64,000 bases of DNA from an uncultured Alphaproteobacteria bacterium (GTDB lineage: Bacteria > Pseudomonadota > Alphaproteobacteria > RF32 > CAG-239), in NCBI GenBank assembly GCA_934273635.1, contig CAKQSV010000001.1, positions 85,393-149,392 on the forward strand, written 5' to 3'. Both the position numbers and the translations under genes were made by a program. Below are positions 5,819 through 10,527 of the stretch, piece by piece. Within the stretch, counting starts at the first letter, position 1, and each line of letters opens with the position of its first letter. The notes below the pieces were generated by a model. That model worked only from the letters and a program-made list of their open reading frames with translations, was not told the origin of the DNA and ran no database searches.

Positions 5819-5929
5819 CTTCTGCCTCCGTTTTGTTTTTTTCTCTCGCTCGTTATGACGGTTTCCCTGTCTGTTCGTCACTGCGAGTTTGGTGGCAAAC
5901 GAAGCAGTCCAGATTTAATAAGGATTCCT

Positions 5930-6066
5930 TGGTTTGACTGGATTGCTTCGGTGGCAAGCCACCTCGCAATGACGAGGGAGGGACGCCGACTGGATTGCCA
6001 CGACCGCAAGCGGTCTCGCAATGACGGTTTGGGTAACGCGCCCTATCGTCTTCGCAATGATGAGAA
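5930..6066. repeat. tandem REP-like palindromic units
   Basis: Two units, gactggattgc-[stem-AA-stem]-tcgcaatgacg, with stems GGTGGC/GCCACC versus GACCGC/GCGGTC (compensatory changes), plus a partial third copy, cgtcttcgcaatgatgag. Confidence 0.6.
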
Positions 6067-6353: not shown

Positions 6354-6704
6354 ATGAAGTTCTTTAAGAAAAATATTTGGACAATCTGTTCATGGGTTGC
6401 CGTTTTTGCATTGGTAGCCGCAGATGCTTTTGCTGATCAGGGTTCTTCTTTGATGACCACCGCTCAGACCAAAGCTTCTAACGTGTTCCAATCAGTTAAA
6501 ACCATCACCTTTATTTTGGGTGGTTTCGGTTTAATCGGTATCGCATATCAGGCTATTATCGGTAAAGTTAAATGGTCTTGGTTTGCGGGTTTGGCCGTTG
6601 GTTTGGCTCTGTTGGCCGCTGCAGGTGCTATCGTTGAATACGCTACCGGCGCTTCTGTCAACGACAATTTTGCTGACTCGTTCTCTACCGGTGCTTCGTA
6701 CTAA
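6354..6704 (+). CDS. VirB2/TrbC-like type IV secretion pilin paralogue 1 (116 aa)
   Basis: Signal peptide MKFFKKNIWTICSWVAVFALVAADAFA, then two hydrophobic helices (ITFILGGFGLIGIAYQAIIGKVKWSWFAGLAVGLALLAAAGAIV). Size and architecture match VirB2 (compare Agrobacterium ILGPFGQSLAVLGIVAIGISWMFGRAS). Confidence 0.6.
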   Translation: MKFFKKNIWTICSWVAVFALVAADAFADQGSSLMTTAQTKASNVFQSVKTITFILGGFGLIGIAYQAIIGKVKWSWFAGLAVGLALLAAAGAIVEYATGASVNDNFADSFSTGASY

Positions 6705-6748
6705 TAGAGTTTGTTAAATTAGATAAAAAAAGGAAAGGAAGGTTTGTT

Positions 6749-7162
6749 ATGAAAAATTTGATTGAAAATAATTCACAACACCTTCCTTTTGCCTTTTTGA
6801 TTAAGGGAGCAAGGAAGATGTTGTGCGTAAATTTTAAGAAACTGATTGTCACGGCAGTGCTGATGTTTGTGTGTTCTTCAATTTTATTTGCAACAGATTC
6901 TTATGCACTGTTTGAAGATTTATCCAAACACGGCGGTAAAATTTTTACCGGTATGCGTGAGATTATTTATGCGGTTTCCGGTTTTGGTATTATCGCTATC
7001 GTCATCGGGGCGATTTTTGGTAATATTAACTGGAAATGGCTGACCGCTATTATTATCGGTCTGTTTGTGATTGCGGGTACGGCGACAATCATCAACTATA
7101 TGGTTGAGAGCGATGTTGTGACCCAAGATATGATTACCGACAGCCTGAAGTTTGGCGAATAG
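6749..7162 (+). CDS. VirB2/TrbC-like pilin paralogue 2 (137 aa)
   Basis: Core IIYAVSGFGIIAIVIGAIFGNINWKWLTAIIIGLFVIAG aligns with paralogue 1. There is an alternative in-frame start at 6818 (MLCVNFKK...) preceded by GGGAG. Confidence 0.55.
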   Translation: MKNLIENNSQHLPFAFLIKGARKMLCVNFKKLIVTAVLMFVCSSILFATDSYALFEDLSKHGGKIFTGMREIIYAVSGFGIIAIVIGAIFGNINWKWLTAIIIGLFVIAGTATIINYMVESDVVTQDMITDSLKFGE

Positions 7163-7220
7163 GTTAAAAAAGAAAAATTATTTTGTACTGCAAAAATCTT
7201 AAGGATTAAGGAGACGTGCC

Positions 7221-9704
7221 ATGATGAATGTTAAAAATATTGTAAAAGGTGTTTCATTCCTGTTATGCTTGGGATTTTTGGCATGTGCAACCAACGCCAT
7301 GGCGAAGAGCAGCTTTGATGACTATGAAACTCAGTACGAAGATGAGCAAGCGACCTATGGTAATTGCGAAAACGCCAAGAAATATATTGATGAAGGTAGA
7401 AAGTGTGACTCAAGCAGTAAGAAGGCAACTCTTGAAAAAGCTTGTCAGAAATATCAATCAGTCAAAGCAGAATATAAAACATGTATGAGCGGTGGCAAAT
7501 CAGAATCTAAAGCGGCTTATGACGCATTGACGACGGCAAATACTTGTGAATCTACTGCCATAAAAAACATTAAAGAGGCTTTTGCCAGCTGTAAAGCGGC
7601 TATAAAAGCATATAAAAAGGCAGACAAAGCAAATGACAAGAAGAAGGCAGCAGGTGAAGCTAATAAAGAGGCTCAAAAAGCCATGACTACTGCGAAAGCG
7701 GCTTATTATAGGGCTATAGCTGACTGTGAACAAGGGGAGACGTTTGGCGACTGCTCTAAGGCAAATGATTTATATAAAGATTATCAGAAAAAAGCCAAAG
7801 CCGCTGGTAAAACCGCTAAGGCTGCAACAAAAGCAGATACTGCAGCTGCCGCCCAAAATAAGGCTTTTCAGTCTGCTGCAAATGATTCCTGCGGCATTGG
7901 GAGACGGTATAATGCTGACACTGGCGCTTGTGAAGACATTAACCTTGACCTGAGTAGTGAAGACCCTGATATTGCAGGGGTTAAGGCGGACTCAGACGCG
8001 GCCAAAGCTGCCGCAACCGGTAGCTCATCCTTAACCTGTAGTAATGTCAGCAAAAAAGGTGAGGCTAACGGCACATTTGCAATCTTTGACTATCTTGCCT
8101 GCCGTATCACCTTGGTGGTGGCTGATGTTCGCGCTATCGTATACATCTTGGCCGGCTTTGGTATGATTGCCTTTGCTTATGGCGCAATCATCGGCAAAAT
8201 CAACTTTAAGCAGTTGGCAAACATTTTTATCGGATTGTTTATCTTGTCAATGACAACCGGATTAATTGAGGCTATTGTCTTTAATGACGGCACATCTCGC
8301 TTGACTTATCACAACTATTTACCGGACGGCAATCATGGGCAATATAGCTCTGTGAGCGCAGATTGTAGCAGTGACGCAAGCTTGTGTCCGGATGTTGAAT
8401 TGAATGGTATGAAAGCTGACGCAGACAATAGCTCTTGGAGCTTGAGCGACCTTAAAAATACTATTAAATCAGCCAAGAAAGCTGTTAAGACTGCGTCAAA
8501 TACCGTTAAGACCGTTAAAAACACAGTCGAAACTACGGTGAACGCTGCAAAGAACATCGGCAACGCCATCAAAAACGGTGGGGATATTACCGATGTGGTC
8601 AGCAACATTGCCGCCAATGTCAGCAATGTGGTTGGTACCGCGAATATGGCGGCTAACCAGTTGGCAAACAACTATGCCGACCTTGCTAATGATATTCGCG
8701 ATGCTCAGTCGACTGAGGAGCAACTTAAATATCGTGAAGAAGTCGAAAAACGCTATAACCTCTTGAAAGGTAAGTGCGATACCGGCAACTGTAGTGAGAA
8801 CGAAAAAGCCTCTTTGGCTAAAATGGCTGAGATGGTCGATGAAAACAAAACCAAAGCCGACAAATGGGTTGAGAACGACGGCAAAGGTGGCGGTTCGACT
8901 ATCTTGAGTGGTCTTGGTAAAGCAGCAAACATAGCAAGTTCAGCAAACAAAGTCACCTCAAACGTCGCTCAGGCACAAAATGACGGTTCGGCTTTGGCTG
9001 GTGGAGCATTAGGTGATGTTTTAGGCGTAGCTTTCGCCGCAGGAGAGGCTTACACCAGTGGCTCGGATGCTTATGATAAGGCTAAAAGCGATGGTTCTTT
9101 AGACTTCCGCAGCGGTCAGACCAAGAGCGCTGATGACGCCAGACATGCTCAACAAGCCGCTGAAGACGCTTGTATTAAAAAAGGCGGTAAGTTGGCTAAC
9201 GGCAAGTGCATGAGTGATAAAGGTGTTGAAATTGATATTACCACCGGCGCCCGCACTAAGACAGCGACTGACGATAAGGGTAACAAGACGACGGCTACTT
9301 CAACAACAGATAAAGCCACCGGTACAAAAACAACAACGGCTGTCGTAACCGATAAAGACGGTAAGAAGGTATCCGAGACCGTCACGGTTGAAAACAAAGA
9401 CGGCACCAAGACCGTTACGGTTAAAGAAAACGGTAAGAACAAGTCTGTAAGCTATGGCAAAGACGGCAAACTCACCTCCGTTGACGGGCAAAAGGCTGCC
9501 GACCAAAAAGCCACCTGCACCCAGCAAGGTAAAGTTTGGGACGACAAGTTGGGTTGCCGCACGCACGAAGCAGTTTGCCAAAGCGAGGGTAAAACCTATG
9601 ACAGCAATTCTAAAAAGTGCGTAGCAAAGAAAGAGGGAAAGAAAGCCGATACAAAGAAGGGAGCCGCTAAAAGTTCGGCAAAGTCAACAACCACTAAAAA
9701 ATAG
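7221..9704 (+). CDS. 827-aa secreted/membrane chimeric protein: signal peptide, Cys/Lys/Ala-rich domain, VirB2-like pilin core, then Thr/Lys/Gly/Asp-rich low-complexity tail
   Basis: GGAG sits 7 nt upstream of the ATG. Signal peptide MMNVKNIVKGVSFLLCLGFLACATNAMA. Residues ~295-350 (IVYILAGFGMIAFAYGAIIGKINFKQLANIFIGLFILSMTTGLIEAIVF) are paralogous to the two upstream pilins. The N-terminal domain is Cys-rich, with 14 Cys in residues 1-285 (two lie in the signal peptide), and the C-terminal region has a further 10 Cys. Confidence 0.6.
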   Translation: MMNVKNIVKGVSFLLCLGFLACATNAMAKSSFDDYETQYEDEQATYGNCENAKKYIDEGRKCDSSSKKATLEKACQKYQSVKAEYKTCMSGGKSESKAAYDALTTANTCESTAIKNIKEAFASCKAAIKAYKKADKANDKKKAAGEANKEAQKAMTTAKAAYYRAIADCEQGETFGDCSKANDLYKDYQKKAKAAGKTAKAATKADTAAAAQNKAFQSAANDSCGIGRRYNADTGACEDINLDLSSEDPDIAGVKADSDAAKAAATGSSSLTCSNVSKKGEANGTFAIFDYLACRITLVVADVRAIVYILAGFGMIAFAYGAIIGKINFKQLANIFIGLFILSMTTGLIEAIVFNDGTSRLTYHNYLPDGNHGQYSSVSADCSSDASLCPDVELNGMKADADNSSWSLSDLKNTIKSAKKAVKTASNTVKTVKNTVETTVNAAKNIGNAIKNGGDITDVVSNIAANVSNVVGTANMAANQLANNYADLANDIRDAQSTEEQLKYREEVEKRYNLLKGKCDTGNCSENEKASLAKMAEMVDENKTKADKWVENDGKGGGSTILSGLGKAANIASSANKVTSNVAQAQNDGSALAGGALGDVLGVAFAAGEAYTSGSDAYDKAKSDGSLDFRSGQTKSADDARHAQQAAEDACIKKGGKLANGKCMSDKGVEIDITTGARTKTATDDKGNKTTATSTTDKATGTKTTTAVVTDKDGKKVSETVTVENKDGTKTVTVKENGKNKSVSYGKDGKLTSVDGQKAADQKATCTQQGKVWDDKLGCRTHEAVCQSEGKTYDSNSKKCVAKKEGKKADTKKGAAKSSAKSTTTKK

Positions 9705-9723
9705 CTTCTTGTTCTATGGCTCA

Positions 9724-9762
9724 AAAACACCCCGTGTTGACTCTCTCCACGGGGTGTTTTTT
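9724..9762 (+). terminator. rho-independent terminator of the pilin-like operon
   Basis: Stem acaccccgtg / cacggggtgt followed by TTTTTT. Confidence 0.75.
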
Positions 9763-9935
9763 AATGACCAGAAACTCAGAATTGTCATTGCGATGACGTT
9801 AGGGGAAGGGAACGTGCCATTGCCGCTCTAATAATTTAGAGAGGGTATATAAAGACTTCTTCCCTAAATTTTTAGGGAAGACGGATTTCTTAAGAGGACA
9901 GGAGCTAACAGCGAACTGTACTCTTGTTGAAATCC

Positions 9936-10007
9936 TGATGAGTTTAAAGTTATGTTCGGAGTTTTAATTAAAAGGCTTTCCTTTACTATAAACTCACCTC
10001 CGACAGC
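9936..10007. repeat. MITE-like ~68-bp element, copy 1
   Basis: gagtttaaagttatgttcggagttttaattaa...ctttactataaactcacctcc. The 11-bp inverted ends GAGTTTAWAGT/ACTATAAACTC are present in both copies; the TIR is perfect in copy 2 and has a T/A mismatch here. Confidence 0.5.
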
Positions 10008-10186
10008 TAACGCTGCCACCTCCTCTCTAAATATTTAGCGAGGAGGTTTAAACTCACCTCAACCAATTCCGACTAAAAATTTAGAGAGGAAGGATATAGA
10101 AACCTTACCCTGCCTCTTTGAATTTTCAGAGAGGCAAGATTGCTCAGTAAATGCAACAGCATTTGCACTTAGCAATCTGGTGAGTT

Positions 10187-10253
10187 TATAGTTATGCTTG
10201 GAGTTTTAATTAAGTGTCTTTCCCTTACTATAAACTCATCTGGATTTCTAAAA
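10187..10253. repeat. MITE-like ~68-bp element, copy 2
   Basis: ctggtgagtttatagttatgcttggagttttaattaagtgtctttcccttactataaactcatctgg. About 85% identical to copy 1. Confidence 0.5.
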
Positions 10254-10527
10254 AAATACAATTCGTTTCACTCTTGTATTTTAAGAAATCCTGTCTTCCC
10301 TAAATATTTAAGGAAGACATTACCCCCCTCTAATAATTTAGAGAGGGAATAAGTAGCCACTTTACACTTGGATCGCCACGGACGTTGCCGTCCCCGCGAT
10401 GACGTTCGGGACAGAAGTTCTAAAAAAATAATATCAAAAAAAATCATCCTTTGTAAAAAAATTTATTTTGCGATTTTGGCAAAAAATGCTAATATAAGTA
10501 TTATATTATTGTTCTATGGAGGCTGCA

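Follow-up and report, generated by a model that had tools for sequence, protein, structure and literature searches.

A 64,000-nucleotide (nt) stretch of the chromosome of an uncultured human-gut alphaproteobacterium (lineage RF32; CAG-239; contig CAKQSV010000001.1, positions 85,393 to 149,392), here called the window, carries a dense field of hairpins in the 811-nt intergenic region at 9705-10515, between an open reading frame (ORF) of 827 amino acids (aa) and a PfkB kinase-MFS operon. We show that this field represents a dispersed, strain-variable, modular palindrome family that is nested in the spacer of a dimer of repetitive extragenic palindromic (REP) sequences at an intergenic hotspot, with breakpoints located at hairpins. 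An earlier note made from the letters of this DNA had proposed a palindrome family, of the kind of REPs or Rickettsia palindromic elements, in a recombination or insertion hotspot, and our results support that claim. We regard the field as selfish or neutral DNA, a nest of noncoding palindromic modules belonging to a gut and rumen alphaproteobacterial family, and assign this reading a probability of roughly 0.7.

The existence of the hairpin field is confirmed. Allowing at most one mismatch, the core motif CTAAAWWTTTAG occurs seven times in 64 kb, with 6 of the 7 matches inside 9828-10341; the expectation from shuffled sequences is 1.47 matches in 64 kb, and none of 100 shuffles reached 7. Likewise, 7 of the 61 strong hairpins of the window (stem of at least 9) are located in these ∼530 bp. 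All seven hairpins that had been counted there are present, but one of them (D, described below) is palindromic in its core only and is not a true hairpin. Five larger hairpins (two D3, two x, and one y) and a global palindrome come in addition. The absence of an ORF over ∼800 bp, also noted before, holds for the whole intergenic region, where the longest ORF has 59 aa; exact look-up of this pseudo-ORF returned the same contig only, and a protein search with the concatenated pseudo-ORFs of the field recovered nothing, not even the ORF called in contig L001. Tandem Repeats Finder (TRF) detected no tandem array in the field, which also lacks the evenly spaced, near-identical direct repeats of a CRISPR array. 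Self-alignment and a profile of the repeat unit found no further field-like copy in the remaining 63 kb of the window. The sole match of the field in an Rfam 15 scan was to JA01, with 24.5 bits compared to a gathering score of 111 (E = 0.36), and the repeat loci of relatives had no Rfam match.

The field is composed of a basic unit of ∼175 to 190 nt, defined together with copies at other loci, in which an A-type hairpin (CCCTCTCTAAAWWTTTAGAGAGGG), a D3 hairpin (arms GGGTGAGTTTAA and TTAAACTCAYC), an x hairpin, and a B-type hairpin (CTTCCCTAAAWWTTYAGGGAAG) follow each other in this order. Two units stand head-to-head with their B ends outward. The left unit lies on the minus strand and comprises, from its outer end, hairpin B (9856-9883; B-type, hp2), inside which metagenome assemblies from two samples break (contigs L002 and L145); the x hairpin (9883-9935; GGATTTC...GAAATCC); the D3 hairpin (9939-9996; TGAGTTTA...TAAACTCA), which is 86% identical to the second copy; and hairpin C (10018-10047; A-type, hp1). 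On the plus strand, the right unit begins with hairpin E (10111-10136; A-type variant, hp1), contains an extra hairpin y (10137-10178; AGATTGCT...AGCAATCT), and continues through D3' (10181-10238) and x' (10242-10291) to its outer end at hairpin B' (10292-10319; B-type, hp2). The two units (U1 and U2) have 76% identity in direct alignment, and pseudo-hairpin D (10063-10090, plus strand; core 10073-10084) lies between them. On both sides the pair is flanked by hairpin A, of which 20 nt (CTCTAATAATTTAGAGAGGG) are repeated exactly and in direct orientation, with copies at 9826-9845 in hairpin A (9823-9845, plus strand) and at 10328-10347 in hairpin A' (10324-10347, plus strand), and everything is enclosed in the spacer of a REP dimer tagged with CGTC or TGTC. 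The left member of this dimer (9783-9825, plus strand; TGTC-ATTGC...) is degenerate, with an intact counterpart in contig L111, and the right member (10367-10404, minus strand) has the form CGTC-ATCGC-(loop)-GCGAT-CCA. Between the A copies lies a palindromic insert of 482 nt (9846-10327), which together with one A copy makes up a 502-nt indel; its ends are inverted over ∼47 nt (B and the start of x) and are 74% complementary. The segment 9819-10350 aligns to its own reverse complement (E = 2e-42), and 641 nt fold as a single giant hairpin on either strand (-249 and -251 kcal/mol; z = -16.5).

Structure is retained across the copies. In three alignable stems from 12 units, 93.8% of cells pair, a value that falls to 38 to 56% in slid controls, and seven stem pairs have double-sided changes, compared to 2.8 ± 1.2 in shuffles (0 of 500 reaching seven). 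Three versions of the x stem were found, each fully compensated (GGATTTC/GAAATCC, GAAATTC/GAATTTC, and GAAAACC/GGTTTTC), and a G-U pair is kept on one strand in 11 of 12 D3 stems. The majority of stem positions, however, are invariant across genera, and the hairpins therefore form sequence classes rather than freely covarying stems; of the covariation initially described, the compensatory differences stand, but the stems are not free to vary and group into two conserved classes (A-type, CCCTCTCTAAA; B-type, CTTCCCTAAA) with variants. Conservation as sequence classes is what would be expected of DNA palindromes that are spread by copying and recognized by a protein, and it is compatible with an RNA role too.

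Evidence for strain variability comes from metagenome contigs that encode the same TrbC or PfkB proteins, recovered from Hadza and other human-gut samples. These provide seven alleles of the intergenic region, with lengths of 314, 474, 583, 823, 919, 941, and 2138 nt between flanks of 93 to 98% identity. The Rho-independent terminator of the 827-aa ORF (9723-9766, plus strand; a 14-bp perfect stem followed by a T-run) is kept in all alleles as the conserved left boundary of the variable segment, and the conserved promoter and leader of the PfkB operon (10435-10527, plus strand) form the right boundary; the variable segment itself begins between 9797 and 9814, the positions at which homology of L105 and L111 to the window stops, and ends at 10435. 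The allele of L114 is identical to that of the window. In the 314-nt allele (L113, L115, and L118), window positions 9706-9849 run directly into 10325-10527; this allele is a REP dimer whose spacer contains just one hairpin A, and exactly the 502 nt between the A copies are missing from it. The 482-nt insert is thus absent from these three contigs and present in the window, L114, L112, and L117. The last two carry, besides the field, a 105-nt module that substitutes for CTCT at 10023-10026, within the left arm of hairpin C. L111 has the same module at another locus, beside an A-type hairpin, and L105 has it inverted; the module thus adjoins hairpin cores in three settings and occurs in either orientation. 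CGTC REPs replace the field in L105 and L111, and the hotspot holds CGTC REPs with a DUF3800 gene in L099 and L110; in L099 (8531-9259, the same site as L110 14126-14854, from a lineage of 86 to 90% identity), this gene lies with a 51-aa ORF among the REPs.

Breakpoints coincide with hairpins in these alleles, the 502-nt block being bounded by the A copies and the 105-nt module abutting the core of hairpin C. The comparisons show that the block is present or absent between strains and that further modules insert or delete at hairpin cores. Comparison with L111 (at the second hotspot, below) and with L112 and L117 (at the first) identifies pseudo-hairpin D as a scar left by microhomology-mediated deletion (CTAA) of the 105-nt module: the first 14 nt of that module, its 5' end (CCAATTCCGACTAA), are fused here to the right half of an A-type hairpin. 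The suggestion of an insertion or recombination hotspot is borne out by the seven length alleles between near-identical flanks, and that of a palindrome family of the REP kind by the units at other loci.

The second hotspot is the intergenic region between the porin and TrbC genes (5849-6062), and both hotspots flank the locus of the TrbC and 827-aa ORFs. In the window it contains CGTC REPs only, a cluster of the form CGTCAYTGCGAG...GCAATCCAG with the CGTC pattern at 5876-6026. In L111, L112, L113, L115, and L117, however, the same region has a B-x-D3-A unit ∼90% identical to window 9856-9999, and in L112, L113, and L115 a second, inverted unit lies across the REP dimer. Full units are further present at four independent intergenic regions in rumen metagenome-assembled genomes (MAGs), namely RUG12396 (L007, L045, and two sites in L048) and RGIG4908 (L025); in RUG12396, three units lie within 16 kb of a single contig, and a different contig carries the fourth. 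At all four independent loci the unit is located directly past the terminator or stop codon of the upstream gene and runs in the same direction as that gene. Full-length matches to the unit profile (E = 1e-25 to 1e-48) were recovered only in gut and rumen alphaproteobacterial loci, those of the window species, RUG12396, and RGIG4908, with a later full-length match in contigs L148-150 (E = 3e-30); other phyla match the A-type hairpin alone. The motif is therefore not confined to the field, and its copies are not a simple tandem duplication, the two outcomes that had been named as refuting the initial proposal: the unit occurs at a second locus of the species and in rumen Alphaproteobacteria, and TRF returned no tandem array.

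The pattern CTCTAAWWWWTTAGAGAGG, run against the genome collection, was too loose and retrieved generic hairpins of many phyla, with related rumen MAGs among the matches listed. The D3 pattern had no match in IMG/VR and two chance matches only in JGI metagenomes, two more unit patterns gave nothing or chance matches in IMG/VR, and a literature search for the sequence motifs recovered primers only. Among the matches listed in the loose genome scan, GGTGAGT follows within 16 nt of the hairpin at 8 of 70 sites, compared to an expectation of 0.09, and these sites belong to Bacteroidota, Kryptonia, and Alphaproteobacteria. Dense arrays of the form TTAACTCACCCCC-hairpin(CCCCCTCTCTAAA..TTTAGAGAGGGGG)-GGGGGTGAGTTAA were seen in Kryptonia (L013 2650-3650 and L071 1400-1927, as well as L064, L075, L076, and L088), some of them in tandem with a period of ∼48 nt, and their grammar matches that of the alphaproteobacterial hairpin A and D3 arms.

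Several of the dispersed units stand next to genes of the DUF559 family (PF04480), Vsr-like PD-(D/E)XK endonucleases. In L025 and L007 the unit is directly 5' of such a gene, which starts ∼10 nt past the last hairpin. A 73%-identical homologue, P0154 (L148-150), was retrieved independently of the hairpins and has a full unit directly past its stop codon, the late profile match given above; the B-type end faces the DUF559 gene in both arrangements. More distant DUF559 genes (L076, L151, L161, and L162) are bracketed either by related hairpins together with arms reading GGGTGAG or GGGGAGAG or by a 20-nt hairpin in direct repeat. In L076, from Kryptonia, two direct copies of AACTCACCCC-hairpin-GGGGGTGAGT enclose the gene; in L161, there is a perfect inverted repeat of 17 bp (TCGGGTGAGGGGGCGTG / CACGCCCCCTCACCCGA), beyond which lie CCCTCTCC...GGAGAGGG hairpins; the genes of L151-160 have a hairpin and GGGGAGAGGG arms; and in L162 one 20-nt hairpin is directly repeated on either side of the gene. 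In every contig recovered of the single lineage L151-L160 (about 4001-4396 in L151), the DUF559 gene with its surrounding GC-rich hairpins is located between purE and purK. Most DUF559 homologues (P0153-P0206) are on contigs shorter than 3 kb, suggesting that their flanks routinely break metagenome assemblies. We also observed that L007 1-2045 and L025 1382-3416 are ∼96% identical over 2 kb, including the unit and the DUF559 gene, while the adjacent gene has merely 73% identity; this suggests that the stretch shared by these two rumen MAGs, which come from different hosts, may be a recent recombination or transfer tract. A comparison of conservation between unit and flank is uninformative for this pair because the entire left 2 kb is ∼96% identical.

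A D3 arm, GGGGTGAG, present in the units of L007, L025, and L113, fits the motif GGGGWSAS, which has been found in inverted repeats flanking genes for transposases resembling REP-associated tyrosine transposases (RAYTs) (Di Nocera et al., PMC3733652). The corresponding arms in the window are degenerate (GGAGGTGAG and CTGGTGAG). No RAYT-like gene is present among the ∼38 window ORFs scanned, and Y1_Tnp is not among the 25 of 107 families listed for a scan of 71 ORFs from repeat-bearing loci.

We propose that gain and loss at the hotspot are anchored on extruded hairpins. By one route, an element would enter at a hairpin and duplicate it; by another, slipped mispairing between the flanking A copies would delete the long palindrome. 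The nest would stay one giant hairpin throughout because each insert is itself palindromic. With less confidence, we infer that the modules are non-autonomous relatives of the DUF559-carrying elements of related genomes. In its fuller form, which we offer tentatively and hold to be possible rather than probable, this idea makes the units non-autonomous partners of selfish elements that cross phyla and consist of a DUF559 gene amid a composite palindrome, elements whose targets would be extruded hairpins (terminators and REP spacers, for example) and whose entry would duplicate the hairpin. The core of such a composite palindrome would be a CCCTCTC...GAGAGGG hairpin with GGGTGAG/CTCACCC arms around a small DUF559 gene, a grammar that occurs in Alphaproteobacteria, Bacteroidota, and Kryptonia, and repeated entry of the element would build nested palindromes much as RAYTs relate to REP doublets forming hairpins (REPINs), albeit with a different enzyme. 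Speculatively, mobilization could take place in trans through a DUF559 nuclease or a RAYT-like tyrosine transposase encoded elsewhere. A DUF559-palindrome element class does not appear in the literature searched, and no title or abstract among the DUF559 papers listed concerned palindromic repeats.

Several observations weigh against the interpretation of the field as an inserted, mobile palindrome nest. No transposase or recombinase was detected among the ∼38 window ORFs scanned or in ∼90 kb of strain loci, and a DUF559 gene or relic was found neither in the window nor in those loci; the association with DUF559 genes itself comes from a handful of independent loci. A flanking duplication of 20 nt is atypical of any characterized transposase, and deletion between preexisting repeats accounts equally well for the "empty" allele. 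Flank variants do not sort with the presence or absence of the block and so give no order of events, and the other differences at the hotspot are replacements rather than clean insertions. Within this species the unit was observed at two loci only. Finally, the same-sense orientation of the four independent rumen-MAG units would also follow from a role in RNA.

That last point leads to the possibility, structured RNA having also been suggested in the earlier note, that the unit is a structured noncoding RNA or 3' untranslated element of ∼180 nt with four hairpins, acting as an mRNA stabilizer, a terminator-insulator, or a small RNA, and that the field consists of duplicated copies of it. The retained hairpin structure with compensatory changes and the one-stranded G-U pair of the D3 stems would suit such a molecule, as would the sense orientation of all four independent single units in the rumen MAGs just past the 3' end of an upstream gene and the T-rich tracts that follow the B hairpins, which resemble inward-facing terminators. 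However, the orientation bias is equally expected from strand-specific insertion, conservation of the sequence classes extends to both arms, as it would in copied DNA palindromes, and the units of this species are found in both orientations as inverted pairs. The field moreover lies past a strong terminator, the block is dispensable between near-identical strains, and no Rfam family matches, all of which leave an RNA function improbable in our estimate. We judge it similarly doubtful that the hairpins are core sites of a site-specific recombinase, whether of a kind resembling the dRS3 repeats of Neisseria intergenic mosaic elements (NIMEs) or integron/Xer-like, which exchanges the modules as mini-cassettes and thereby varies the adjacent TrbC-like surface locus. 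An identical 20-nt core does flank the insert, with inverted arms around an asymmetric TAAT center as after Campbell-type integration; modules are shuffled among sites and orientations; both hotspots flank a TrbC/827-aa locus that diverges between strains (86% identity to L099; 825 to 860 aa); and the same idea has been proposed for NIMEs (PMC1797815). Yet the hairpin arms vary from site to site, several breakpoints are not precise exchanges but deletions at microhomology (CTAA), the rumen-MAG units also lie beside housekeeping genes, and the window ORFs scanned include no recombinase.

Two further accounts fare worse. Local duplication and inverted duplication of an ancestral segment, outside any dispersed family, would explain the 76% identity between U1 and U2 and the lack of a copy in the other 63 kb of the window, but it is contradicted by the recurrence of the unit, which conspecific strains carry at a second locus and other genera at several; the best overall symmetry of the field is inverted rather than direct, TRF reported no tandem array, and we consider this account very improbable. 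It is scarcely credible that a dimeric regulator of the PfkB-MFS sugar operon downstream uses the palindromes as its operators, for although their cores are AT-rich perfect palindromes upstream of that operon, alleles with zero, one, or seven hairpins retain the same promoter region (10435-10527), the same hairpins adjoin unrelated genes, and the nearest hairpin is ∼130 nt upstream of the predicted -35 element. Selfish or neutral palindromic DNA remains the reading we prefer for the field.

The window represents origin-proximal chromosome; it starts in recF, with dnaA and dnaN immediately upstream, and also encodes gyrB, parB, and mnmG. A replication origin was considered as an explanation of the field and rejected, as the field has no DnaA box. 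Upstream of the field, 6354-9704 contains two small genes of the TrbC/VirB2 family followed by the 827-aa ORF, which has a lysine-rich C terminus and no Pfam match. What had been described as a pilin array upstream of the hairpins consists of these two TrbC/VirB2-family members. No further type IV secretion genes were noticed near this locus. The 827-aa ORF ranges from 825 to 860 aa across strains, and the region is merely ∼86% identical in L099. Downstream of the field, the predicted pfkB promoter is a consensus-like site, TTGGCA-17-TATTAT, at 10476-10504. A second promoter-like site at 10428-10457 on the minus strand (TTTACA-18-TATTAT with an upstream TG; 10 of 12 positions matching, a consensus match only) stands back-to-back with it and faces into the hairpin field. 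Elsewhere, the HPr gene and lolA are separated by a gene for an N6/N4 DNA methyltransferase (2031-2963), which has no obvious restriction partner nearby.

These findings provide a natural series of alleles in which the site is empty, filled, or filled and expanded by another insert, with palindromes nesting in palindromes at hairpins. The field explains why metagenome assemblies break at this place and can serve as a strain marker. Should the DUF559 link prove true, a nuclease family that is very common, and whose function is unknown, would turn out to drive a palindromic repeat family. The field also extends mosaic arrays of the type of NIMEs and of bacterial interspersed mosaic elements (BIMEs) to an uncultured human-gut alphaproteobacterium, NIMEs having formerly been called Neisseria-specific.

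Among known repeats, miniature inverted-repeat transposable elements (MITEs) and similar families such as pneumococcal BOX, Correia/NEMIS, and ERIC are noncoding, shorter than 600 bp, intergenic, and modular, with inverted ends and strong secondary structure. The field shares their presence/absence polymorphism, modular build, and inverted ends, and the 482-nt insert, with its 47-nt inverted ends and no ORF longer than 59 aa, has the dimensions of a MITE. Instead of a target-site duplication of 2 to 10 bp, however, the whole 20-nt hairpin A is duplicated; no insertion sequence was seen, none is known as a parent here, and the comparison by sequence, an Rfam search, was negative. PMC3733652 lists these families. 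The small dispersed palindromic repeats of cyanobacteria, described by Elhai and colleagues in 2008, reportedly nest in other repeats and hairpins while preserving the host hairpin; the nesting is alike, but the sequences and hosts are different.

The resemblance to REPs, BIMEs, and REPINs is closer. The hairpins of the field are imperfect extragenic palindromes of 20 to 40 nt, mostly past gene 3' ends, and like the members of those families they often form inverted dimers that fold into larger, nested hairpins and mosaic clusters in which hairpin types alternate. In contrast to REPs and the REPIN-RAYT system, the unit here is ∼190 nt long with four hairpins, its copy number appears low, the ORFs scanned yielded no RAYT or TIRYT gene, and the selfish neighbor gene in relatives encodes a DUF559 nuclease rather than a tyrosine transposase; the match of the arm GGGGTGAG to GGGGWSAS recalls TIRtrons, RAYT-like genes flanked by GGGGWSAS repeats. 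Neither a GTAG nor a CGTC tag flanks hairpins A-E or the rumen-MAG copies, the tag being restricted to the separate flanking family. That family belongs to the CGTC superfamily, which is characterized by a CGTC or TGTC tag, A-T pairs at the start of the stem, a CCA tail, mostly dimeric arrangement, and a distribution mostly in Alphaproteobacteria (PMC3733652): the minus strand reads CGTC-ATCGC...GCGAT-CCA from 10404 to 10367, with the same pattern at 5876-6026. The dRS3 repeat of Neisseria is a member of the same superfamily, CGTC-1 (PMC3733652), and NIMEs consist of dRS3 inverted repeats flanking RS units and were stated not to have been observed outside Neisseria (PMC1797815).

Much of the NIME architecture recurs in the field. 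Inverted repeats of ∼20 bp with conserved ends and a variable center separate AT-richer modules of 30 to 150 bp, comparable to the 50- to 150-bp units that short inverted repeats separate in NIMEs; the arrays occupy syntenic intergenic sites beside surface-protein genes, vary by strain in repeat number and length, and are interleaved with CGTC-tagged REPs. The differences are that the host is a gut alphaproteobacterium, that the hairpins here are without the CGTC tag, that the modules are themselves hairpins in a fixed order, observed at two loci, and that the repeats read CTTCCC-N10-GGGAAG (B-type) and CCCTCTCTAAA-N-TTTAGAGAGGG (A-type) rather than ATTCCC-N8-GGGAAT as in NIMEs; neither type matches the dRS3 consensus ATTCCCNNNNNNNNGGGAAT. 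NIMEs and BIME/REPIN clusters are therefore the closest described architectures, with membership failing on the dRS3 consensus in the one case and on the GTAG/CGTC tag in the other, and the field is best classified as a new family of mosaic repeats that resembles REPs, BIMEs, and NIMEs.

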